This document shows positions 16,584 through 50,270 of a stretch of 64,000 bases of DNA, in pieces; the stretch's first letter is position 1, and each line of letters starts with the position of its first letter. The DNA is from Spirochaetes bacterium ADurb.Bin218 (GTDB lineage Bacteria > Spirochaetota > UBA4802 > UBA5550). The position numbers were made by a program, and so were the translations under genes. The stretch spans positions 888 to 64,887 of the forward strand of contig MWCI01000006.1 in assembly GCA_002069965.1 (NCBI GenBank), written 5' to 3'. The notes below the pieces were generated by a model, which saw only the letters and a program-made list of their open reading frames with translations, had not been told where the DNA came from and ran no database searches.

Positions 16584-17930
16584 TTATGCATCTTGCTTGT
16601 TAGTTCTTCTCCAGATTCTCATCTTTTCTGCCTCAGAAATGAGCCACTCCCTAAAATCTGGATGAGCAATGTTTATTAAAGCCTCTGCTCTTTGCCATGT
16701 GGATTTTCCTTTAAACATGGCAACTCCATATTCTGTTATTACATAGTGAGAAATAGATCTTGGAACAGTAACTATAGCCCCTGGCTTTAATGTAGGGACA
16801 ATCCTTGATTTAACTGTTCCATCTTTGTCTGTGTAGGTGGAGGTAATAGAAATAATTCCCTTGCCACCGGTTGAGTTAAAAGCTCCAAATATAAAATCAA
16901 GCTGACCACCTGTTCCAGAGACATGCCTCCATCCTGCTGATTCTGAGCAGATCTGAGTAAAGAGATCCACCTCAACAGCATTGTTTATTGCTGTAACCTT
17001 TGGATTAAGGCATATTATTCTTGGATCATTTACATAGTTAACTGGATAAGAAGCACATGTTGGGTTGAGATGCAAAAAGTCATAAAGCTTTTTGGTTCCC
17101 ATTGCAAAGGTGTATGTCATCTTAAAGTGATCTATTTTCTTTTTGCTGCCTGTAACCTTGCCGCTCTCATATAAGCTAACACATGAATCAACAAGCATCT
17201 CTGTATGAATCCCCAGGTTTTTGAGATCGCTCTCTGCCAGCAATTGCCCCATGAGATTTGGCAGTGCACCTATGCCCAGTTGAAGTGTTGCGCCATCCTC
17301 AATCTCTTTCATTATGTAGCTTGCAATTTTTCTATCAATATCACGGGGCGGTGCAGGTGGAACCTCAACAAGGGGATGATTATCTCCTTCAACTATATAG
17401 TCAACATTTGATATATGGATTGATTCAAAGTTGCCTCCCAGACAATATGGGACATTGTTGTTTACCTCAACAACAATCTTTTTGGCCTTGCTTAAGTTTG
17501 CTCCTGTAACTGAATTTGCAAGACCGAAATTAAAGTAGCCATTGTTATCCATAGGAGCAGTTGTTATAAAGGCAACATCGGGGCTCAAATATTTTCTGAC
17601 AATTCGTGGAACCTGATGGTATGTAATTGGAATATAGCTGCATTTGTTTTCATCATGGAGCTTTCTGGAAACTCCGCCAAAGTGATAATCATTAACAACT
17701 GCATGTTTTCCCTCTGGATCCTTTTCTATAACCTTAGGAGATTTTGTGAAGCATATTCCTCTGATTTCAACATTGTTGAGTTCGTGTATTCTATCAGCCA
17801 GAGCGCTATCAAGAGCCCATGGGAAAAGGGCAAATTCTCCATAAAAAACATGATTCCCGGATTCAACAACTTCAACAGCTTCCTGGGCAGTTCTAAGTTT
17901 TGATCTGTATTCATTCATAAAGCGACTCAT
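16584..17930 (-). CDS. acetyl-CoA hydrolase/transferase family protein (4-hydroxybutyrate / succinyl-CoA:acetate CoA-transferase-like)
   Basis: At 448 aa the length fits, with full-length family similarity. It is a paralog of 48912..50270. Confidence 0.8.
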   Translation of the reverse strand: MSRFMNEYRSKLRTAQEAVEVVESGNHVFYGEFALFPWALDSALADRIHELNNVEIRGICFTKSPKVIEKDPEGKHAVVNDYHFGGVSRKLHDENKCSYIPITYHQVPRIVRKYLSPDVAFITTAPMDNNGYFNFGLANSVTGANLSKAKKIVVEVNNNVPYCLGGNFESIHISNVDYIVEGDNHPLVEVPPAPPRDIDRKIASYIMKEIEDGATLQLGIGALPNLMGQLLAESDLKNLGIHTEMLVDSCVSLYESGKVTGSKKKIDHFKMTYTFAMGTKKLYDFLHLNPTCASYPVNYVNDPRIICLNPKVTAINNAVEVDLFTQICSESAGWRHVSGTGGQLDFIFGAFNSTGGKGIISITSTYTDKDGTVKSRIVPTLKPGAIVTVPRSISHYVITEYGVAMFKGKSTWQRAEALINIAHPDFREWLISEAEKMRIWRRTNKQDA

Positions 17931-25240: not shown

Positions 25241-26365
25241 TTATTTTACAATATATTCTTTATTAAAATCCTCAGGGGAGATCCATATACTGCTTTTTTT
25301 TAAAGATACCTGAATGCTCTTTCCTGTAAAAAGCTCAAGCCTTCTGTATACAAGATTTGATAGTTCTATTTCCAGTTCAATCTCTTCTCTGTCATCAATA
25401 AAGAATATGGTATGAGTTGCAGTTTTTTCTGTAATAGATTTTACCTTTCCCTTTAATATATTTGGTTCAAGCAGAGGCTTAAGAGGTTCCCCATCCCTTA
25501 AAATCATCACCTCTTCTGCTCTAATGCCAAAAAATACAGCAGTAGAAGGAGATGGACTGGGCCTGTGTTCATGAAGTGTTGCAACAAAGCAATAGTTCTT
25601 ATAACTTATTGTAACCTGATGATTTTCATGATCAACAGATACAACCTTTCCATTAAAAATATTTCCCATGCCTGTAAAGAGTGCAACATTGAGTGTTCTT
25701 GGAAAAAAGTAAAGGGCGTTTTTTTTGCTCGTTTGTTCTATCTGGCCATTGAATATGAGAGATATAACATCTCCAAGAATAAAGGCCTCTTCTTGATCGT
25801 GAGTTACATGGAGAAAGGTTATGTTTGTTTCTCTATGTAGTTGTAGAAGAGTGGATACTATTTTTTTTCTAAGAGGCATGTCAAGGCTGGAGAGTGGCTC
25901 ATCAAGTAAAACTATATCTGGCTTGAGAAGCATTGCCCTTGCAATGGCAACTTTTTGCTTTTCACCACCACTTAAGTGAACTACTCTATTATTCAATAGA
26001 TATTCTATCTCAAGAATATTTATAAGGTATTCAAAGAATTCTTTTACCTTTTCAAAGGGTATTTTGTGAATATTTGCAGCAAAGAGAATATTTTCCCTTA
26101 CAGTTAAATTTGGAAACAAAAAGGAGTTCTGTGGTATAAAGCCAATGGCTCTTTCTTCTGGAGATAGCTCTGTCACATCAATGCCTCGGAGCAAAATCTT
26201 ACCTGATGAGATTTTATAAAAGCCCGCAATTGTTTGTAGTATAACGCTTTTACCTGCACCTGAGGGTCCAAGCAATATATAATATTCGCCTGGTCTGACA
26301 TTCATGAAAAAGTTATTCACTTTGAAATTGCCAAGTTTAAGAGATATATCTTGAAGTTTTATCAC
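25241..26365 (-). CDS. molybdate/tungstate ABC transporter ATP-binding protein (ModC/WtpC-like, with C-terminal TOBE domain)
   Basis: Walker A GPSGAGKS, ABC signature LSGGEKQKVAIARA, Walker B LLDEP. The C-terminal domain is about 130 aa and TOBE-like. Confidence 0.8.
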   Translation of the reverse strand: MIKLQDISLKLGNFKVNNFFMNVRPGEYYILLGPSGAGKSVILQTIAGFYKISSGKILLRGIDVTELSPEERAIGFIPQNSFLFPNLTVRENILFAANIHKIPFEKVKEFFEYLINILEIEYLLNNRVVHLSGGEKQKVAIARAMLLKPDIVLLDEPLSSLDMPLRKKIVSTLLQLHRETNITFLHVTHDQEEAFILGDVISLIFNGQIEQTSKKNALYFFPRTLNVALFTGMGNIFNGKVVSVDHENHQVTISYKNYCFVATLHEHRPSPSPSTAVFFGIRAEEVMILRDGEPLKPLLEPNILKGKVKSITEKTATHTIFFIDDREEIELEIELSNLVYRRLELFTGKSIQVSLKKSSIWISPEDFNKEYIVK

Positions 26366-27156
26366 AAGAAATAGCTCCTTCGGGAAAAATATTTTATGGT
26401 CAGCAGGGAAGCTACGGAAACCATTAAAAGCACTCCTGTAAAGATAAGTGCTCTGTCTACATCTGCAGAGGCAAAGCTCAAAAAAATGGATATAGGAATA
26501 GTTTCTGTAAGCCCAGGCATAGCTCCTGCAAGCATAATAGTTGCGCCAAACTCACCTATACATCTTGCCCATACAATAACAATAGAGGAGATGAGCCCAT
26601 TTTGAACCATAGGCAAAGTGACTTTGAAAAAAGCCTGAGACCTTGTACATCCAAGAATCCTTGCCATCTTTTCGTAAAAGGGATCTACTGAATCAAAGGC
26701 AGATTTAAGAAGCCTTATGGCTATAGATGTTACAATGGAAAATTGAGCAACAATGACACCTAAAAAAGAAAAGGCTACATCAATGCCAACTTTCTTCAAA
26801 AGCAAACCGGAGCTGCCGGAGAAAAATATAAGCAAAAGAGAGCCAAGAGCCACAGGGGATAAAAAAATCGGAATATCTATTATTGTATCTATAAATATGG
26901 AAAATTTGCTCCTATTTCTTGATAGGGAATAGGCACAGGGGATAGCTATGCTTATGGAAAGAAGAGATGCAATGGAGGAAGAGATAAGGCTTAGCCTTAG
27001 AGGTTTTAAGACCTCAGATGAAAAAAGCAATTCAAAAAAATTGCATGGTTTACAAAATATGTAAGCATTAACCACAAGAAGGCAATAGTATAAGGCAACA
27101 AAATATAAAAGTCCCTTTGACAAGGATAGTTGTTTTAGTCTATTTCCAGATTTCAT
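26362..27156 (-). CDS. ABC transporter permease (ModB/WtpB-like)
   Basis: Six-TM permease with an EAA-like loop, translationally coupled to the ATPase. Confidence 0.75.
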   Translation of the reverse strand: MKSGNRLKQLSLSKGLLYFVALYYCLLVVNAYIFCKPCNFFELLFSSEVLKPLRLSLISSSIASLLSISIAIPCAYSLSRNRSKFSIFIDTIIDIPIFLSPVALGSLLLIFFSGSSGLLLKKVGIDVAFSFLGVIVAQFSIVTSIAIRLLKSAFDSVDPFYEKMARILGCTRSQAFFKVTLPMVQNGLISSIVIVWARCIGEFGATIMLAGAMPGLTETIPISIFLSFASADVDRALIFTGVLLMVSVASLLTIKYFSRRSYFL

Positions 27157-27967
27157 TTATTTTGTAGTTTCCCCCAATAGAGATATTGCCATAGATGTTC
27201 TTTAATTCACCAGGTTCGGTTATATAGCCATATTTTTTATAGATCTCTTTCCCTTTTGCTGAAGATATAAAATTAAGGAACCTTATAGCATCTTCGGGAT
27301 TTGAACTGTAATTTGACAATGCAACAGGAATGTAGGCAGCTCTTTTTAAAAAGGCGCTATCAATTTTAATTGACTGTGAAGAATCAGGATTCCATTTTTC
27401 AAATACATCCCAACCAATTACTGCGTCAACTGCCTTCATCGATATTAAATTTGCTGTCTTTTCACAGCTTTCGCCATAGGTTTTAATTTTTTTTCGTGCT
27501 AAAGTGGCAAGTTCGGATTTTTCAAGGATTTCAGCAGCATATAGTCCAACGCATACGCTCCTTGGATCCCCAATGGCAAAAGTGACATCATCTCTTAATA
27601 GATCCTGCAAACCTTTTATATTTTTGGGATTGCTCTTTTGGACAATAATTGCAGGCACAAGGTAGGCTATAATTTTTACATCGCAAGCTTTAACAACTCC
27701 TTTGTCAATTGCAATATCCATGAAATCAGGAGAACCTGGTAGATATATATCCCCTCTTTTTGAGAGAATCATCTCAGAAAGGACAGTTCCAGAACCACCG
27801 TATATTCTCCTTACTTCAATACCTGTTTCTTTAGTAAAAAGATTGGCTATCTCATTTAATGGGGGGAGAGATGCGCTACCTGCAAAGACATCAATGCTTC
27901 TGTGAGTATTTTCTTTGCATGCAATAAAAATAATAGCAAAAATTAAAAGAGTTAGTTTTTTCTTCAT
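27140..27967 (-). CDS. periplasmic molybdate/tungstate-binding protein (ModA/WtpA-like)
   Basis: Signal peptide and type-II periplasmic binding fold. It heads a three-gene transporter operon. Confidence 0.7.
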   Translation of the reverse strand: MKKKLTLLIFAIIFIACKENTHRSIDVFAGSASLPPLNEIANLFTKETGIEVRRIYGGSGTVLSEMILSKRGDIYLPGSPDFMDIAIDKGVVKACDVKIIAYLVPAIIVQKSNPKNIKGLQDLLRDDVTFAIGDPRSVCVGLYAAEILEKSELATLARKKIKTYGESCEKTANLISMKAVDAVIGWDVFEKWNPDSSQSIKIDSAFLKRAAYIPVALSNYSSNPEDAIRFLNFISSAKGKEIYKKYGYITEPGELKNIYGNISIGGNYKINEIWK

Positions 27968-27980
27968 ATTCCCTCACATA

Positions 27981-28553
27981 TCACAGATAGAGATTTAAGC
28001 CATCGCAGATCAAACATTTCCCATTATCTCTTTCTCTAACAGGATATGCCTCTCCGCATTGACTGCATAGAGAAATTTTGCTACCCTTTTTTTTACCTAT
28101 AAAGTCTGGAGATACTTTAACTTCTTTTATATCAAGGATAGAAGCCCCTGCTGCAATTATCTCTCTAAAAAGAAGATCTTTATCCTGCTCCTGCTTTTTT
28201 TTAAGCTTTAAAAACCAGTTTTTTATCTCTGGAAAGTTTTCAAGCTTAGAAGCAGAGAGGTTGACTCTTACTCCATTGCCATTGTATTTATCAAAAACAG
28301 TTAAGGCAAATCGACCTGCATTTATTACCTTTAGCCATCCATTACCAAAGGTGCATGGCGTAAGCAACTGAATAGCATCTGGAAGACATGTCGCTGTCTC
28401 ACATATACAGTCGTAAAATTCGCACTCTGGTTTGTTTTTTAATGCAAGATCAACCATGAATCCCCCAATGAGAAGCCCTGGGGCACTGGAGCCATGGAAG
28501 TCCTCAATCATTTTCATATATTGTTCAATGGTATAAGAGCAGATAGTCGTCAT
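27981..28553 (-). CDS. FmdE/FwdE-family protein with C-terminal zinc ribbon
   Basis: SSAPGLLIGGFMVDLA FmdE core. The C-terminus carries CSQCGEAYPVRERDNGKCLICDG. Confidence 0.7.
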   Translation of the reverse strand: MTTICSYTIEQYMKMIEDFHGSSAPGLLIGGFMVDLALKNKPECEFYDCICETATCLPDAIQLLTPCTFGNGWLKVINAGRFALTVFDKYNGNGVRVNLSASKLENFPEIKNWFLKLKKKQEQDKDLLFREIIAAGASILDIKEVKVSPDFIGKKKGSKISLCSQCGEAYPVRERDNGKCLICDGLNLYL

Positions 28554-28597
28554 CTTGGTCTCCTTAAAGATTTGTTTTTTTAATTTAAAAATAAATA

Positions 28598-28705
28598 CAA
28601 GTATTTATTCATTAACTTCTATTAAAATAAAATACTCTCTTACCCCCGAAGCCTTCGGCGGTGAGGATAATTTACACTAAAAATTACATTTAGGAATAAT
28701 TAGTG
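28598..28705 (+). repeat. MITE-like dispersed element, copy D
   Basis: CAAGTATTTATTCATTAACTTCTATTAAAATAAAATACTCTCTTACCCCCGAAGCCTTCGGCGGTGAGGATAATTTACACTAAAAATTACATTTAGGAATAATTAGTG. Confidence 0.6.
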
Positions 28706-28750
28706 AAATAAATAAGATATTTTTAACATGTATAATTACTGTGTCAAATA

Positions 28751-28822
28751 AAAAAATACCGTATGGTATTTTTTTATTTGACGATTTGATTTTCTGTTGA
28801 CAAAAAATACCGTATGGTATTT
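28751..28822 (+). promoter_or_regulatory. duplicated palindromic operator overlapping the promoter of the Mo/W oxidoreductase operon
   Basis: AAAAAATACCGTATGGTATTTTTTT at 28751..28775. AAAAATACCGTATGGTATTT at 28803..28822, preceded by TTGACA (28797..28802) and followed by TATAAA. The arms AAAATACC/GGTATTTT are separated by the spacer gtat. Confidence 0.5.
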
Positions 28823-28853
28823 ATAAAAGCTTTAAGAATTAAAAGGGGGCGTT

Positions 28854-31088
28854 ATGGGACAGTGGAAAAAGAGCGGTTGTGTTTTATGTGCTCAAAACTG
28901 TGGTCTTGAGCTTGAGATAGAAAATAATAGAATTATCAAGGTGCGCGGCGACAGGGATAATCCGAGAAGTAAAGGTTATGTGTGCCGTAAGGGTATGAAT
29001 ATCGCCTATCATCAACATCACGCCGATAGGTTGACATATCCACTTAAAAAAACAGATAAAGGCTTTGTCCAGATAACATGGGATCAGGCTATAGAAGAAA
29101 TTTCTCAAAAGCTTAAAAGCATTATAGATCAATATGGTCCGAGATCTTATGCCTATATGGGTGGAGGAGGTCAGGGTTGCCATTTTGAGGCTGGTTTTGG
29201 TGTAACGCTTATGAGGTTGCTGGGTTCAAAATATCATTACAATGCCCTTGCTCAGGAGTTAACAGGACAGTTCTGGGCCCATGGACGGGCAACTGGTAGG
29301 CAATACAAATTTACAATACCAGATGAACATAATTGTGAGATGTTAGTTGCCATTGGATGGAACGGTATGGTAAGCCATCAGATCCCAAGAGCGCCAATAA
29401 TGTTAAAAGAGATTGCCAGGGATCCAAATAAACTCCTTGTTGTCATTGATCCGCGGAAAAGTGAAACGGCAGAAATTGCAGATATCCATCTGCCAATAAA
29501 ACCTGGCACTGATGCTTTGCTAACAAAGGCTATGATCTCCATTGTGATAAATGAGGGTTGGGTTGATGAAGAGTATATAAAAAATCACGTAAGCGGATAT
29601 GAAGCAATAAAGGGCTGGTTTAAGGATTTTGATGCAAAGTCTGCTGTGGAATTTTGTGGTCTTGATTATTCTCAGGTGAGGGATCTCTGTAAAGAGCTTA
29701 GAGTGAGGAAAAGTGCATACCATCCAGATCTTGGGGTCTACATGAATAGACATAGCACTCTTACCTCTTATCTTCAGATTATATTGTTTACAATTACAGG
29801 AAATTTCTGTGTCAAAGGGGGCAATGTTATTCCTGGGATGCTTATGCCAATTTCAGGTCACAGTGATGAGAGAGATGAAAAGACATGGAGAACTGTTGAG
29901 ACAGGATATCCTGCTTTATGTGGTCTATTCCCTCCAAATGTTATGCCAGAGGAGATACTCTCATCAAAACCTGATAGATTAAGAGCTGTTATGTGTTGCC
30001 AGAGTAATCCGCTTCGTTCCTTTGCTGATACAAAAGCCTATGAGGAAGCCTTTTCAAAGCTGGATCTTCTTGTAGTATGCGAAATCGCCATGACAGAAAC
30101 AGCAAAGCTTGCTCACTATGTGTTGCCCTCAAAATCAGCTTATGAATCCTGGGATGGAACATTCTTCCCATGGACATGGCCGGAGATCTATTTCCAGATG
30201 AGGCGCCCTATTGTTGATCCAGTTGGCGAGCCCTTAGAGATAAGTGAGATTCATACAAGAATTGCAGATAGAATGGGCTTTATTCCAGAGATACCTCAGG
30301 TGCTATATGATGCAGCAAGGGAAAATAGACTGAAATTTGGAATGGAACTAATGAACTATGTTAAAGAAAATCCAGCTGCTGCAAAGGTTCTTCCTTTTAT
30401 AATTGCAAAGACTCTTGGCAAAGAAATGGGTTCCACAAATCTTGCAAGCCTCTGGGCAATGTTGATGAATGCCCCAGGGAGTTTTAAAAAGAGTGCTGTG
30501 CGGCTTGGATTTAACAAGGGTCCTCTTCTTGGAGAGGAATTGTTTAAGGCAATAATAGATCACCCTGAAGGGCTTTGGATTGGAAAATCTGATGAGGATA
30601 ACTTTTCTGATTTAAGCACTGAAGATAAAAGAGTAAATATATTTATACCAGAAATGAAAGATTGGCTTGATGAGCTTGAAGTTGCAAAAGAAAGAGAAAA
30701 GCTGGAGTTTAATAAAAAATTCCCATTCATACTTTCTTCAGGTAGGCATTTCCCATATAATGCTAATACCCTTATGAGAGATCCGCAGTGGAACGATGGC
30801 AAGCGTGCCTGCACCTGTATAATGAATCCTCTGGATGCAGAAGAGTTGGGGCTTAAAGATGGTGATATTGTAAAGGTTGTGACAGAGGCTGCAGAGGTTG
30901 AAATTGAGCTTGAGCTTACAGAAGCAACATGTAGAAAATATATCATGATACCCCATGGATTTGGCCTTGAATATCAGGGAAAAACAACAGGGGTGAATGC
31001 TAATCTTCTTGCAAAGAATACTCACAGAGACCCCTTTGCTGGAACTCCATATCACAGGTATATACCATGTAGAGTAGAAAAGGCATAA
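28854..31088 (+). CDS. cytoplasmic molybdopterin/tungstopterin (MopB, bis-PGD) oxidoreductase of unknown substrate
   Basis: N-terminal 4Fe-4S motif CVLCAQNC...C with no Tat or Sec signal. At 744 aa the length fits, with no in-frame TGA. Confidence 0.8.
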   Translation: MGQWKKSGCVLCAQNCGLELEIENNRIIKVRGDRDNPRSKGYVCRKGMNIAYHQHHADRLTYPLKKTDKGFVQITWDQAIEEISQKLKSIIDQYGPRSYAYMGGGGQGCHFEAGFGVTLMRLLGSKYHYNALAQELTGQFWAHGRATGRQYKFTIPDEHNCEMLVAIGWNGMVSHQIPRAPIMLKEIARDPNKLLVVIDPRKSETAEIADIHLPIKPGTDALLTKAMISIVINEGWVDEEYIKNHVSGYEAIKGWFKDFDAKSAVEFCGLDYSQVRDLCKELRVRKSAYHPDLGVYMNRHSTLTSYLQIILFTITGNFCVKGGNVIPGMLMPISGHSDERDEKTWRTVETGYPALCGLFPPNVMPEEILSSKPDRLRAVMCCQSNPLRSFADTKAYEEAFSKLDLLVVCEIAMTETAKLAHYVLPSKSAYESWDGTFFPWTWPEIYFQMRRPIVDPVGEPLEISEIHTRIADRMGFIPEIPQVLYDAARENRLKFGMELMNYVKENPAAAKVLPFIIAKTLGKEMGSTNLASLWAMLMNAPGSFKKSAVRLGFNKGPLLGEELFKAIIDHPEGLWIGKSDEDNFSDLSTEDKRVNIFIPEMKDWLDELEVAKEREKLEFNKKFPFILSSGRHFPYNANTLMRDPQWNDGKRACTCIMNPLDAEELGLKDGDIVKVVTEAAEVEIELELTEATCRKYIMIPHGFGLEYQGKTTGVNANLLAKNTHRDPFAGTPYHRYIPCRVEKA

Positions 31089-33773: not shown

Positions 33774-35348
33774 TTATACTCCGTCTGATTTAGACTTTTG
33801 ACTATGCCCAGCAGACTTTACATATTCAATCTTATTAAGGGCATCAACAAAGGACATGATCCCTGCAATGGAAACATCTATGCTCATGCCATTGCCAAAG
33901 ACCTTTATTACATTGCCATTGACCTCTTCTTCTACTGTAACAGAGACCTCGCATAAAGCATCAGAGCCTCCTGTAATAGCCACAAGGTTAAAGGCTTTTA
34001 TATTGGCCTTTGTTCCTGTCATTTTTTTTACAGCATTAACACCTGCATCAACTCCTCCGTTACCATGGGCAACCTCAAAAATAGCCTCAGTATCGCTTTG
34101 ATTGTCTCTTAAGGTTACCAGAGCCATAGGTGGAGAAAACATACCTGTTGAAATCTGAATATTCTTAACAACATATCTCCAGTTCTGTTCTTTTTTGTGA
34201 AGGACTTCCCCAATCATGGCAACAAGATCTTCATCATATATCTCTTTCTTTCTATCTGCAATACATTTAAATTTTGCAAAAAAGGCATCAACCTCCTCTG
34301 GTTTAAGCTCAAAGCCCAGTTCTTTAAGCCTTGAAAGCACAGCATGTCTCCCGGAGTGTTTACCAAGGACAAGTTTTGATCTTGTTATTCCAATATCCTC
34401 AGGTCTCATTATCTCATATGTCATTGCATGTTTAAGTACTCCATCTTGATGAATACCAGACTCATGTGCAAAGGCATTGTCCCCAACAATCGCTTTATTT
34501 GGTTGAACAGATACACCTGTTATATTTACAAGGAGTTTGCTTGTTTGCATAATCTGTTTTGTATTTATCTCTGTATAACAATTGAAGAGATCATTTCTGG
34601 TTTTTATTGCCATTACAAGTTCTTCCATGGCAGTATTGCCAGCTCTTTCACCAATACCATTTACTGTGCACTCCACCTGTCTTGCTCCAGCCTGAATAGC
34701 TGCAAGGGAATTGGCAACTGCAAGTCCAAGATCGTTATGGCAGTGGACAGATATAACTGCCTTATTTATATTTGGAACGTGATCAAAAAGGTATTTAATG
34801 AGATCGTAAAATTCAGTTGGAATTGTATAGCCAACAGTGTCTGGAATATTAACCGTTGTTGCACCTGCCTCTATAACAGCAGAGACCATCTCTGCAAGAT
34901 ACACTCTGTCGCTGCGAGTTGCATCCATTGGTGAAAACTCAACATTTGGGATAAACGAGCATGCATAAGATACAGCCTCAATTGCCTGACGCAAAACCTC
35001 TTCTCTTGTCTTTTTGAGCTGATATTCAATGTGGATATCAGAGCTTGATATAAATGTGTGTATACGTGGGTGGACTGCATTTTTCAAAGCTCTTGCTGCA
35101 GCCTCTATGTCCTTGTTGTTTGCCCTTGCAAGACCAGCAACCTGAGCTTTTTTTACTTTTTCTGCAATGGCACTAACTGCCTCAAAGTCACCATCAGATA
35201 TTACAGGAAAACCAGCTTCAATAACATCAACACCAAGCTTTTCCAGTTGCTCTGCAAATATTAGCTTTTCCTCAATATTCATGCTGAATCCAGGTGATTG
35301 TTCTCCATCTCGTAGAGTTGTATCAAATATTATTACTTTATTGTTCAT
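33774..35348 (-). CDS. leuA: 2-isopropylmalate synthase
   Basis: IIFDTTLRDGEQSPGFSMN HMGL-like barrel, plus the C-terminal LeuA dimerisation/regulatory domain. 524 aa. Confidence 0.85.
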   Translation of the reverse strand: MNNKVIIFDTTLRDGEQSPGFSMNIEEKLIFAEQLEKLGVDVIEAGFPVISDGDFEAVSAIAEKVKKAQVAGLARANNKDIEAAARALKNAVHPRIHTFISSSDIHIEYQLKKTREEVLRQAIEAVSYACSFIPNVEFSPMDATRSDRVYLAEMVSAVIEAGATTVNIPDTVGYTIPTEFYDLIKYLFDHVPNINKAVISVHCHNDLGLAVANSLAAIQAGARQVECTVNGIGERAGNTAMEELVMAIKTRNDLFNCYTEINTKQIMQTSKLLVNITGVSVQPNKAIVGDNAFAHESGIHQDGVLKHAMTYEIMRPEDIGITRSKLVLGKHSGRHAVLSRLKELGFELKPEEVDAFFAKFKCIADRKKEIYDEDLVAMIGEVLHKKEQNWRYVVKNIQISTGMFSPPMALVTLRDNQSDTEAIFEVAHGNGGVDAGVNAVKKMTGTKANIKAFNLVAITGGSDALCEVSVTVEEEVNGNVIKVFGNGMSIDVSIAGIMSFVDALNKIEYVKSAGHSQKSKSDGV

Positions 35349-35499
35349 TTTTAATCTCCATTTTTTTTAATTTAAAACTTCTTAGCTTTAAGCCAGCGAA
35401 AATAGATTTTGCAAAATAATCTATATAATCAAAAAACATCTATTGAAATTAAGACTAAACGGGAAGTTCATTCCCTACACCTCCAATTCATTTAGATAT

Positions 35500-35528
35500 A
35501 AAAAAAGCCGTCACTGTTTCGTGACGGC
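35500..35528 (-). terminator. attenuator terminator of the leuA leader
   Basis: On the minus strand GCCGUCAC-gaaaca-GUGACGGC is followed by UUUUUUU. The 5' arm plus loop can instead pair with the upstream GUUUCGUGAU to form an antiterminator. Confidence 0.7.
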
Positions 35529-35555
35529 TTTCGATTTTTCTATATTAAAAAGACA

Positions 35556-35627
35556 TCACGAAACATGGCCAGCTGTAAGCAGGCTAAGGAGGAGTCCTAG
35601 TAATAGTAAACCCTTTTGTGATGTCAT
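35556..35627 (-). CDS. leucine leader peptide (23 aa: MTSQKGLLLLGLLLSLLTAGHVS)
   Basis: Minus-strand ORF atg aca tca caa aag ggt tta cta tta cta gga ctc ctc ctt agc ctg ctt aca gct ggc cat gtt tcg tga. It has 9 Leu, including runs of 4 and 3. The stop codon overlaps the antiterminator segment, directly upstream of the leuA terminator. Confidence 0.65.
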   Translation of the reverse strand: MTSQKGLLLLGLLLSLLTAGHVS

Positions 35628-35867
35628 AAAAATTACTCTCTAATTGCTAAAGTTAAAACATTTATAGCTTTCTTATGTCAATAAAAAATTTTAAAATTTT
35701 GTTTTTTTGATTAATAATAGTTAATAAGAATATCTTTGATGGTAAAATAGCATTTTAAATATTAGAATGTTTTATTCAATATAGATATTTAATGAATAAC
35801 ATTGATTTTTGAGCTTTTTTGTGAAAGTTTTCAGTGTTTATTCTTTAAGTTTTTTAAAAATAAAGCT

Positions 35868-37604
35868 TTATATCTTTTCAAATCTACTCTGGAAATAATT
35901 TTTGTAAATTTTAAGTCCAAGCTTGTTTTGTTGTTCTATTATTTCTTTTAAAATTTCAGGTGTTGTGAGAGGATTTATTGTAATTGCCCTGAGAACAACA
36001 CAATCTTGATAAAAATACTGAGGAGCATCTATCATGGTCCTTGACACAAAGCTATCATCTTCTTCTCTTATAGCCTTGTGAAGTTCTGTATTGAGATCAT
36101 TTAAGAGTAGATTTATTTTTTCTACCCGATTTAGATATTCCATTTTGATAAATTGATTCCTGTCATCTTTAAAATCTTCATTTTGAATTCTGCTCATAAG
36201 TTTATTGAGCTGTTCCTGAACATACTTTGGTACAAATCTATAATTAAAAATAAAAAGTTCAGGCTGATTCATTGCCTCAAAGTTGCAGTGCATTTCTACA
36301 AGACCTCTGAGAACTGATGTCAGCTCAAAGGCATAATCAAAGATCAGCTTAAATCCCTCTTTGCCAAAGATCTTTAATGTTGCCCATGGCTTAAGAGCTG
36401 CAAAGGGTCGAGATCCCTCTACGGAAAATCTTCCAAGGTCAACAGAATCCGGTCTTATTATATAGTTGGAATAGTGCTGCAATGCTCTAAGCTCTGTTCC
36501 GTTTCTAAAAAATACCATTCCAAGGGAGGGAGGAGCATACATTAGTTTATGAGCATCTACTGTTACAGAGTCAGCTTTTTCTATTCCGGAAAATAGATAT
36601 CTATATTCATCTGAAAGGAGTAAAGAGCCACCCCATGCAGCATCTACATGGAAAAAGGCATTATATTGTGTGGCAATTTTTCTAATCTCCTTAAGGTTAT
36701 CGATATTGCCTGTTTCAGTTGTCCCTGCAATTCCTACTATGGCAATTATCTTGGTCTTTGGACCTCCATTTAGGCCAGTTTCCTCAAGCTCTCTGCAGGT
36801 CTTTTCCAGTTTTATAATATCAATCTTATTTTTTGAATCAACAGGTATTTTTATTACATTTTGATTTCCCAGACCTATTGTTCTCCCAACCTTATCTATG
36901 GAATAGTGACCTCTCTTAGAAACAAGAATTACAGCTCTATCCACTCCATAATATTTATATGCCTCAGCAATTCCAGCCTCTCTAATACCAGGGAATCTGC
37001 CATGTGGCCCAAAGGCGAGATTACGGGCAGTTAAAAGAGCTGTCAGGTTTGCCATTGTGCCATCAAGGGTGAGATTTCCCAGAGCTATATCTTTATTCTG
37101 TATATTGGCCTTATAAAATTTTGTAGATCTGCGAAATATTATTCTGTGCATCCATGCAAGGAGTTCCTTTTCTACAAATGTGGATGCTTTTGCAGATTCA
37201 ATCTTCACCTGATTTTGATTAAGAGCTGCAATTATCATTTCAAGGAGAATCATGAAATAAGGAATGGCGCTTGTCATGTGGCCAATATAATAGGGATTGC
37301 CAACCTTTACAGAGTGGGCAATTATTTTTGTCTTTATCTCATAAAGAACATCTTTGAGTCTGTGGGGATTTTCTGGAATATCTATATTGGAAAAGATCTT
37401 TGCAAGTTCAGGCAAAAGTATTGAGCTGTGGATACCGCCTTTTTCTGTAAAGAATTTGTGGATCATATCCAGAAGTTCGTTGCCAAACTCATGGAATTTG
37501 TCCGGGGATTCAGGCATAATAAAAAGTTTGCGGATCTGCTCTATGTCAACAGGTATTCCATCTTTTGTTATATGCTGTTTATGATGTTTCTGGTTTGAAT
37601 ACAT
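35868..37604 (-). CDS. PLP-dependent group II decarboxylase (L-2,4-diaminobutyrate / tyrosine / glutamate decarboxylase family)
   Basis: PLP-Lys motif SVTVDAHKLMYAP and the PYYIGHMTS N-terminal motif of Pyridoxal_deC. 578 aa. Confidence 0.7.
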   Translation of the reverse strand: MYSNQKHHKQHITKDGIPVDIEQIRKLFIMPESPDKFHEFGNELLDMIHKFFTEKGGIHSSILLPELAKIFSNIDIPENPHRLKDVLYEIKTKIIAHSVKVGNPYYIGHMTSAIPYFMILLEMIIAALNQNQVKIESAKASTFVEKELLAWMHRIIFRRSTKFYKANIQNKDIALGNLTLDGTMANLTALLTARNLAFGPHGRFPGIREAGIAEAYKYYGVDRAVILVSKRGHYSIDKVGRTIGLGNQNVIKIPVDSKNKIDIIKLEKTCRELEETGLNGGPKTKIIAIVGIAGTTETGNIDNLKEIRKIATQYNAFFHVDAAWGGSLLLSDEYRYLFSGIEKADSVTVDAHKLMYAPPSLGMVFFRNGTELRALQHYSNYIIRPDSVDLGRFSVEGSRPFAALKPWATLKIFGKEGFKLIFDYAFELTSVLRGLVEMHCNFEAMNQPELFIFNYRFVPKYVQEQLNKLMSRIQNEDFKDDRNQFIKMEYLNRVEKINLLLNDLNTELHKAIREEDDSFVSRTMIDAPQYFYQDCVVLRAITINPLTTPEILKEIIEQQNKLGLKIYKNYFQSRFEKI

Positions 37605-48911: not shown

Positions 48912-50270
48912 TTAGTCCTGTCGATTTGTTCTTGTCCAGATATTCATCTTTTCAGCCTCTGCTATTAATTCCTCTCTAAAGTCGGGGTGAGCAATGCCTA
49001 TGAGTGCTTCGGCCCTTTCCCATGTAGATTTTCCTTTAAGCTGAACTATTCCATATTCTGTGACAATATAATGGACCATGTTTCTTGTGACAGTTACAAC
49101 TGTTCCAGGTTTGAATGTCGGCACTATCCGTGATTTCAGGTTTCCATTTTTGTCTGTGTAGGTTGATTCAAGGCATATAAAAGATTTTCCACCTTCTGAA
49201 TGAAACGCCCCGTATACAAAATCCCATTGCCCACCTGTTCCGGTAATATGCCTGAATCCATTGGACTCTGAAGAAACCTGGCTGTAAAGATCCACCTCAA
49301 GGCAATTATTTATTGAAACAACATCTGGATTTGCAGCAATAATCTTAGGATCATTGACCATATTCACAGGATATGATGCAAGGAATGGGTTGTTGTCCAT
49401 AAAATCATAAAGCCTCTGGGAGCCAAAGGCAAAGGTGTATACCATTTTTCCAGGATAAACTTTTTTCTTGTTGTTGCTTATACATCCCTGTTCAAACATG
49501 TCTATATAGGAATCAACTAACATCTCTGTGTGAACGCCAAGATCTTTAAGTCCAGACGAAGCAATTAGCTTGCCAAGGGCATTGGGCATTCCTCCAATTC
49601 CAAGCTGGATGCAGCTTCCATCTTTCATCTCATTGATTAGCATTGAGGCAATTTTTTTCTCTGTTTCTGATGGAGTCTCTTCTGGAGCAGTAAGAAGTGG
49701 GGCATGATCTGATTCAACAATGTAATCAACCTCAGAGATGTGAACTGATTCATCAAGGCCACCAAGGCAGTATGGTATGTTTTTGTTAACCTCAACTACT
49801 ACTGTTTTTGCATGTTTTATTATAGTTTTTACAAAGGTGTTTGCAATTCCAAAATTAAAGAAGCCATTTTTGTCCATGGCAGTTGCGCGCATAAATAAAA
49901 TATCTGTTCCTGCATAGCCGCATTCTACTGTGCGTGGATATTCGTGAAATAGTGATGGCAGATAGTCGCACAGCCCTTTGTCGTGAAGAATTCTGTCTCC
50001 AATGCTAAAGTGCGCATTGGTAAAGATAATATGCTCTCTTTTTTGATCTGCCCATACAGCTTGACAGATACCAGGATACACTTGAGTCTGGAGTTTTACA
50101 TTATGCAGCTCATGAACTCTTTGAGCCAGAAATTTATCTATATAAACAGGTGATAGTATAAAGCCGGCATAGCATATTCTGCTATTTGATTGAACAAGCC
50201 TTGCAGCTTCTTCTCCAGAGATGAGCTTGCTGCGGTATTCACTTTCATACTGGGGGGTTATGATATTCAT
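48912..50270 (-). CDS. acetyl-CoA hydrolase/transferase family protein (paralog of 16584..17930)
   Basis: 452 aa, colinear similarity with the other copy (…VVVEVNKNIPYCLGG…VTEYGI..LKGKSTWERAEALI…AHPDFRE). Confidence 0.8.
   Translation of the reverse strand: MNIITPQYESEYRSKLISGEEAARLVQSNSRICYAGFILSPVYIDKFLAQRVHELHNVKLQTQVYPGICQAVWADQKREHIIFTNAHFSIGDRILHDKGLCDYLPSLFHEYPRTVECGYAGTDILFMRATAMDKNGFFNFGIANTFVKTIIKHAKTVVVEVNKNIPYCLGGLDESVHISEVDYIVESDHAPLLTAPEETPSETEKKIASMLINEMKDGSCIQLGIGGMPNALGKLIASSGLKDLGVHTEMLVDSYIDMFEQGCISNNKKKVYPGKMVYTFAFGSQRLYDFMDNNPFLASYPVNMVNDPKIIAANPDVVSINNCLEVDLYSQVSSESNGFRHITGTGGQWDFVYGAFHSEGGKSFICLESTYTDKNGNLKSRIVPTFKPGTVVTVTRNMVHYIVTEYGIVQLKGKSTWERAEALIGIAHPDFREELIAEAEKMNIWTRTNRQD

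Follow-up and report, generated by a model that had tools for sequence, protein, structure and literature searches.

The stretch of DNA analysed here (64,000 nucleotides, below called the window; GC content 36.5%) carries on its minus strand the gene leuA (Table 1). Its product scores 738 bits against NCBIfam model NF002086 (cut-off 532) and 686 bits against TIGR00973 (cut-off 599), and it stays far below the cut-off for citramalate synthases (227 against 450). Judged by these family scores, it is a true 2-isopropylmalate synthase. The gene is apparently monocistronic; the next gene downstream is a pstS homologue, coding for a PstS-family binding protein, with a promoter-like site of its own, and no other branched-chain amino-acid genes were found in Pfam scans of 29 ORFs between approximately 16.5 and 55 kb. 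Upstream of the leuA leader lies a gene for a PLP-dependent, PanP-like decarboxylase (35868..37604). Farther away in the window are two paralogous acetyl-CoA hydrolase/transferase genes (16584..17930 and 48912..50270, both on the minus strand) and a cluster comprising FmdE, a solute-binding-protein/ABC-transporter set and a molybdopterin oxidoreductase (25241..31088).

Table 1. Elements of the leuA leader and the gene that follows it (window coordinates)
Feature	Position	Strand	Sequence or basis
Putative -35 box	35681..35676	minus	TTGACA; read from sequence
Weak -10-like sequence	35658..35653	minus	TTTTAA; 17-nt spacer after -35 box
Shine-Dalgarno (SD) sequence of leader ORF, weak	35640..35636	minus	GAGAG; purine-rich
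Leader ORF, 23 codons	35627..35556	minus	MTSQKGLLLLGLLLSLLTAGHVS; ends with UGA; ORF list and sequence
Segment 1	35625..35618	minus	GACAUCAC; predicted to pair with GUGAUGUC (35559..35552) as anti-antiterminator/pause helix
Leu codons of leader ORF (putative sensor)	35609..35598, 35594..35586, 35582..35577	minus	
Segment 2, antiterminator 5' strand	35566..35549	minus	AUGUUUCGUGAUG (35566..35554) followed by UCUUU; contains UGA
Stop codon of leader ORF	35558..35556	minus	UGA, inside AUGUUUCGUGAUG
Segment 3: terminator 5' arm and loop, antiterminator 3' strand	35531..35515	minus	
Intrinsic terminator	35532..35500	minus	GAAA-GCCGUCAC-GAAACA-GUGACGGC-UUUUUUU; terminator scan
Second conserved element (SD, hairpin, mini-ORF)	35484..35421	minus	Sequence and related loci
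SD of second element	35484..35478	minus	GGAGGUG; perfect
Hairpin of second element	35475..35461	minus	GGGAA-UGAAC-UUCCC; AUG (35471..35469) in loop
leuA, 2-isopropylmalate synthase	35348..33774	minus	Pfam HMGL-like, HCS_D2 and LeuA_dimer

The region preceding leuA had been described in the first-pass annotation, made from the sequence alone, as a leucine attenuator with a Leu-rich ORF of 23 codons, a stop codon placed inside an antiterminator segment, a terminator hairpin followed by a U-tract, and a pairing of the leader start with the region just after the stop. All of these parts are present and had been correctly placed. Nine of the 23 codons specify leucine (UUA CUA UUA CUA / CUC CUC CUU / CUG CUU), distributed over three runs and five codon types. 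By its Leu fraction the ORF ranks third among 427 short ATG-initiated ORFs of the window, and taken alone it is not statistically unique there. The case for more than chance therefore rests on relatives of the locus.

The terminator was recovered by a terminator scan, which counted 12 pairs including the flanking A/U pairs; the core of the hairpin together with seven U residues occupies 35528..35500, approximately 150 nt upstream of the leuA start, and the folding energy of the hairpin is -18.4 kcal/mol. Segment 2 contains UGUUUCGUGA, the exact reverse complement of UCACGAAACA, which consists of the distal 5' arm and the loop of this terminator. In the window the pairing between segments 2 and 3 (2:3) extends to 12 base pairs, one of them G-U, plus five pairs of UCUUU:AAAGA type. 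Segment 1 is in turn an exact complement of a part of segment 2, and the unconstrained fold of 35655..35490 contains this 1:2 helix together with the terminator (-44.4 kcal/mol, z = -4.19, none of 200 shuffled sequences being as stable).

A LeuA-based scan with one genome per GTDB species yielded 26 related loci, all from metagenome-assembled genomes (MAGs) of Spirochaetota, many of them titled Leptospirales or Leptospiraceae, with LeuA proteins 68-86% identical to that of the window. A remark in the first-pass annotation that lineages of this kind more often use T-boxes is thus beside the point, as the lineage is Spirochaetota and Leptospirales-like. The same Leu-rich leader, the presence of which in the clade had been proposed as a check, stands upstream of leuA in all 26 loci: an ATG-initiated ORF, 20-30 codons long and containing a Leu run such as LLLGLLL or LLLALLL, lies approximately 60 to 480 nt from leuA and is followed after a 17-24 nt spacer, counted from the GUGAU stop, by a GCCGUCA-built terminator with a U-tract. 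All 27 leaders, that of the window included, have their UGA embedded in the GUGAU of segment 2. Recurrence of the full architecture in 26 of 26 related loci is, on this comparison of sequences, far beyond chance. A regular expression describing the attenuator gave one match per spirochaete locus and one in the window, always before leuA, with a single spurious match in approximately 600 kb; no further copies of the attenuator or of the second conserved element were found with regular expressions beyond the leuA leaders in the window and all fetched loci. Contigs with the exact LeuA of the window occur in 62 index blocks of a metagenome collection, and the four places shown represent four different samples; JGI 3300028568 and ENA ERZ27249275 are examples of samples that contain the organism. 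On all four annotated contigs of this set (L081-L084), neither the leader ORF nor the mini-ORF of the second element is called as a gene, and one of them calls instead a 33-aa ORF overlapping the leuA start.

Among the 26 related loci and the window, the positions of leucine are kept and their codons vary, with all six synonyms in use; the window has UUA CUA UUA CUA where L001 has UUA UUA CUC and L003 has CUG CUU CUC. Other hydrophobic residues seldom substitute for leucine, and the runs are interrupted by polar or charged residues (LLLDLLLL, LLLNL). Outside the Leu run the peptide is variable, save where RNA pairing dictates its residues. Of the Leu codons in the family's leaders, 21% are CUA and 23% CUU, compared with 7% and 45% in genes of the window (27 long ORFs, 1,164 Leu codons); this enrichment of CUA is suggestive, the leaders coming from different genomes and the baseline from the window alone. 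In leaders of the window type, the last leucine of the run precedes the stop by six codons. Standard footprint sizes suggest that a ribosome at the stop codon would sterically mask the antiterminator strand.

Both alternative helices are supported by compensatory changes. In an alignment of 23 sequences the consensus terminator has 11 pairs, four of them compensatory and none broken, and its top pair varies between C-G, G-C and U-A. For the antiterminator, an ungapped alignment was used, with the stop codon as the anchor of segment 2 and CGUCA as that of segment 3; this stop-anchored alignment replaced RNAduplex runs of segment 2 against the whole terminator. In register, 88.8% of 242 cells pair (22 distinct sequences), compared with 32-51% when the partner strand is shifted by 1-3 columns. 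At four pairs both partners have changed, and 500 column shuffles gave neither a percentage nor a covariation score as high as those observed.

Individual loci illustrate how the helix would be retained. Where the window has UUUCGUG against CACGAAA, L015 has UUUUGUG against CACAAAA, so that L015 and L011 share UUU(U)GUG opposite CAC(A)AAA; the changed base of L015 is constrained by the antiterminator alone, because it sits in the terminator loop. The antiterminator strands read GAUUGUGAUG opposite CGUCACGAUC in L010 and L025, and GAUUC opposite GAAUC in L019. In L028 the upper stem of the terminator has been rebuilt as AGAGAGCCCCUCUCU, and segment 2 has become AGAGAGGGGCU, complementary to AGCCCCUCUCU of the terminator. 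Comparison of the two strands thus indicates that the antiterminator is kept by compensatory changes, including those in terminator-loop bases that are free of terminator constraint. The mutually exclusive antiterminator and terminator pair postulated in the first-pass annotation stands: the complementarity in the window is exact, and in orthologues the helix is kept by compensation.

The behaviour of the competing helices was followed by folding. A nascent RNA that begins just 3' of a ribosome halted late among the Leu codons and ends with the terminator loop folds, at minimum free energy, into the helix of segment 2 with the terminator 5' arm. This holds for the window and for each of the 25 distinct orthologous leaders folded, with energies from -10 to -22 kcal/mol across leaders. 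In the window the helix amounts to -18.1 kcal/mol (z = -5.3) and is comparable to the terminator. With a ribosome placed on the stop codon, the predicted probability of the terminator is 0.94-1.00 in every leader. With a ribosome stalled at Leu 12-14 in the window, this probability falls to 0.00-0.01 at equilibrium. Equilibrium folds with a ribosome mask leave the terminator above 0.9 in most orthologues at every stall position; values below 0.1 are reached in the window and L011 only, and approximately ten other leaders show partial dips. As the terminator wins at equilibrium in most orthologues irrespective of ribosome position, the switch would have to be kinetic. The same equilibrium dominance of the terminator is known from the trp attenuator of Escherichia coli, and in classical attenuators the 3:4 helix is more stable than the 2:3 helix.

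The 1:2 helix is likely, though not established, as a family trait, with moderate statistical support. A complement of the stop motif occurs close to the ORF start in most orthologues and its register varies: the helix may involve the start codon in some of them, the region just before the Leu run in others, and the Leu codons themselves in L012 and L020. Compared with shuffled sequences, the 1:2 pairing has a mean z of -1.6 and reaches p<0.05 in 11 of 26 leaders.

The leader is probably transcribed from a promoter of its own. The window and 24 of the 26 related loci have an (A/T)TATTGACA box 45-76 nt before the leader AUG, and its conservation argues for function as a -35 box, which would set the start of transcription approximately 20 nt upstream of the leader ORF. 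This box bears on the question which gene owns the hairpin. If the latter were merely the terminator of the decarboxylase gene and the small ORF incidental, as the first-pass annotation had allowed for, two observations would be accounted for: the terminator scan found no other terminator-like site from the decarboxylase stop (35868) down to the hairpin, and the 12 closest loci have the decarboxylase ahead of leuA. The decarboxylase is confined to these 12 loci, however, while in the other 14 it is absent or the upstream ORFs lie on the other strand, and ORF, antiterminator and terminator remain intact beside leuA. Moreover, a WG-repeat gene (WG_beta_rep) has taken the place of the decarboxylase in L084 (metagenome contig Ga0416709_00529), a strain variant of the same organism. 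The breakpoint lies 496 nt upstream of leuA, at approximately 35845 of the window and just upstream of the leader promoter region, and the leader beyond it differs from that of the window in a synonymous CAU-to-CAC change in segment 2 and two changes in the spacer, and in nothing else. The conserved -35 box stands between the decarboxylase and the leader ORF, and a plain terminator would not explain why the stop-codon region covaries with the terminator loop. Ownership of the hairpin by the decarboxylase has accordingly next to no probability, and the comparison supports assignment of the leader to leuA, with which it stays where the upstream gene differs.

Two further explanations would accept the elements and read them otherwise. 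The ORF could encode a functional small hydrophobic membrane peptide or toxin, equipped with its own terminator and unrelated to the regulation of leuA; the string LLLLGLLLSLL does resemble a membrane-spanning or signal-peptide core, and two other short Leu-rich ORFs are present in the window. Conservation is nevertheless specific for leucine, with other hydrophobic residues rare and the runs broken by polar or charged ones, the remaining peptide varies except where RNA pairing dictates it, and the ORF is always found immediately upstream of leuA with its stop inside the antiterminator strand, so we hold a peptide function of this kind to be very improbable. A somewhat better, still small, chance is given to a genuine switch set by a factor acting in trans, such as uncharged tRNA as in T-boxes, an RNA-binding protein or a metabolite. 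Alternative structures by themselves do not tell one sensor from another, and equilibrium folds in most orthologues do not switch with the position of the ribosome. Against such a factor, neither the window nor 20 related loci contained a match to T-box or any other Rfam 15 family at gathering score, T-box was absent among matches at E<=10 within 35300..35900, and no conserved structured domain was seen besides the three pairing segments. What is conserved, namely a start codon with a purine-rich SD, Leu positions with drifting codons, and an invariant in-frame UGA in segment 2, fits a ribosome as the sensor.

We therefore regard it as highly probable that the region before leuA is a functional, ribosome-mediated, Leu-sensing leader-peptide transcription attenuator. 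The first-pass annotation had read it as a textbook case of this mechanism, and its reading gains support from conservation of the Leu run, placement of the stop codon, covariation, the -35 box and linkage to leuA; it had counted lack of conservation of the Leu-run ORF and of the alternative pairings as evidence to the contrary, and both are conserved in the related leaders. From these features we infer ribosome stalling, competition of helices during transcription, and a response to leucine. Expression of leuA would follow the charging of tRNA-Leu by means of a ribosome translating the leader. Transcription would begin approximately 20 nt before the leader ORF. When leucine is scarce, the ribosome would stall in the Leu run (codons 7-17) and leave segment 2 free to pair with the terminator 5' arm and loop while these emerge from the polymerase; the terminator would be blocked and leuA transcribed. 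When leucine is plentiful, the ribosome would reach the UGA in the middle of segment 2 and mask the segment, the terminator hairpin would form, and transcription would end at the U-tract near 35500. If the leader were left untranslated, segment 1 would pair with segment 2 and the terminator would form again.

The first-pass account holds for the attenuator, but it missed a second conserved element directly downstream of the terminator. This element begins with a perfect SD, followed six nucleotides later by an AUG presented in the loop of a short hairpin; its conserved block in the window is UUGGAGGUGUAGGGAAUGAACUUCCCGUUUAGUCUUAA (35486..35449). The AUG opens a mini-ORF, MNFPFSLNFNRCFLII* in the window, that starts with the pattern M-x-[F/I/V]-P-x-x-L, which includes a conserved Leu codon, and continues with variable sequence over a total of 6 to 45 codons. 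Between the U-tract and the element lie 15-35 nt in the window and 21 of the 26 related loci; the carriers of the element beside the window are L001-L005, L007, L009, L011-L024 and L028, and in L019 it is present approximately 170 nt further downstream. The distance from the element to leuA is variable (88 to 327 nt). In sequences anchored on the element the hairpin covaries (GGGAA/UUCCC, GGGAC/GUCCC, GGGAUA/UAUCCC, GGGAAA/UUUCCC). RNAalifold returned a weak consensus of -0.47 kcal/mol from an alignment in which MAFFT had misaligned the hairpin, and an alternative SD:UCCCG pairing that it proposed is unsupported. Pairing of GGAGG with CUCCUCC of the Leu run was likewise considered, and it was rejected, several orthologues having no CUCC in the run.

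The element is absent from four related loci. In L006 and L008, the ribosome-binding site of leuA itself takes the place after the terminator equivalent to that of the element's SD; in L010 and L025, no more than about 50 nt separate the terminator from the leuA start. The element seems to have been lost more than once, because L007, close to L006 and L008, has it. A metagenome scan with an exact pattern gave 16 matches, 13 of them between this attenuator and leuA, and the remaining three represent one unrelated sequence, apparently an ordinary gene start. Among the sequences searched, the element was thus seen in this leader only. The spacers between the element and leuA in L001, L002, L005, L021 and L023 carry small insertions with inverted repeats GTCAT...ATGAC(AG) (GTCATTTCAAA...TTTGAAATGAC in L001); these look MITE-like and explain much of the variation in spacer length.

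A bipartite leuA leader, in which the second module would serve as a checkpoint separate from the Leu attenuator, is a tentative and rather doubtful reading. As hypotheses, the element might act as a ribosome-loading or stabiliser site that shields the long spacer from Rho or RNases after read-through, or as a second translational sensor by way of its conserved Leu codon. The conserved need may be a ribosome-binding site right after the terminator, because L006 and L008 put that of leuA there.

Attenuation by leader peptides is known from Proteobacteria, Actinobacteria, Firmicutes and a few other phyla. The enterobacterial leu attenuator consists of the leuL ORF with its Leu run, a stop codon the occupation of which masks the antiterminator strand, mutually exclusive 1:2, 2:3 and 3:4 helices, and a terminator before leuA; the leuL leader of E. 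coli shows a comparable bias for the rare codon CUA. The window leader shares with it a short Leu-run ORF enriched in rare CUA, the placement of the stop, the exclusive 2:3 and 3:4 helices, a likely 1:2 helix and the terminator before leuA. It differs in having no sequence or covariance-model similarity, Leu_leader being absent among matches at E<=10 within 35300..35900, in its nine Leu codons of five types in three runs instead of four consecutive CUA codons, in segment 1, which falls within the first codons of the ORF and precedes the Leu codons, in the control of leuA alone instead of a leuABCD operon, and in the element that follows the terminator. Below the Rfam gathering score of 55 in both cases, Thr_leader reaches 24.8 bits and Phe_leader 24.2 bits in the window, scores owed to the terminator and the general shape alone. 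On comparison of their sequences, the window leader would work like the enterobacterial leu attenuator and yet stands outside its sequence family.

Other leaders come close in some of their parts. The ilv-leu operon of Staphylococcus aureus is preceded by an attenuator with a Leu-rich peptide, and, together with related branched-chain amino-acid leaders of Firmicutes, it shares with the window leader a Leu-rich leader peptide and attenuation of a branched-chain amino-acid transcript outside Proteobacteria (PMC5794164). It belongs to another phylum and sequence family and controls, with CodY, a large ilv-leu operon, and we set it apart on the basis of its description. The actinobacterial LEU element likewise has a Leu-run upstream ORF before a monocistronic leuA; there, a pseudoknot is formed in which Leu codons pair with the SD of leuA, and no obvious terminator is present (PMC1262725). 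In the window leader, by contrast, a canonical intrinsic terminator, complete with U-tract, stands before leuA and separates the leuA SD from a Leu run approximately 230 nt away, an arrangement other than the pairing that characterises the LEU element.

The closest non-spirochaete homologues of the LeuA protein are found in Syntrophaceae-like or "delta-proteobacterial" MAGs, seven of which (L026, L029, L032, L033, L037, L038 and L064) have Leu-run ORFs 170-240 nt upstream of leuA, for example MLSQLLGLALLCLLHRNRRPSFLGLP. Their leaders appear to form a separate sequence family, because they do not contain the GUGAUG and GCCGUCA motifs. A survey of 26 genomes reports an ilvB motif in Leptospira and nothing for leuA (PMC8632094), and full-text literature searches returned no description of a leuA attenuator in spirochaetes. 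The mechanism itself is classical; new are the lineage, the fact that no existing model or annotation covers the leader, and the conserved element after the terminator.

With comparative support that is unusually clean, our results extend leader-peptide attenuation of the classical type to Spirochaetota. For annotators, the leader presents a recognisable and so far unannotated regulatory unit that Rfam models do not cover, and the second element is the sole part of it able to teach anything new about how the attenuator may be coupled to downstream expression. For the biology of these bacteria, the finding predicts that these uncultured anaerobes would regulate leuA alone through the charging of tRNA-Leu.
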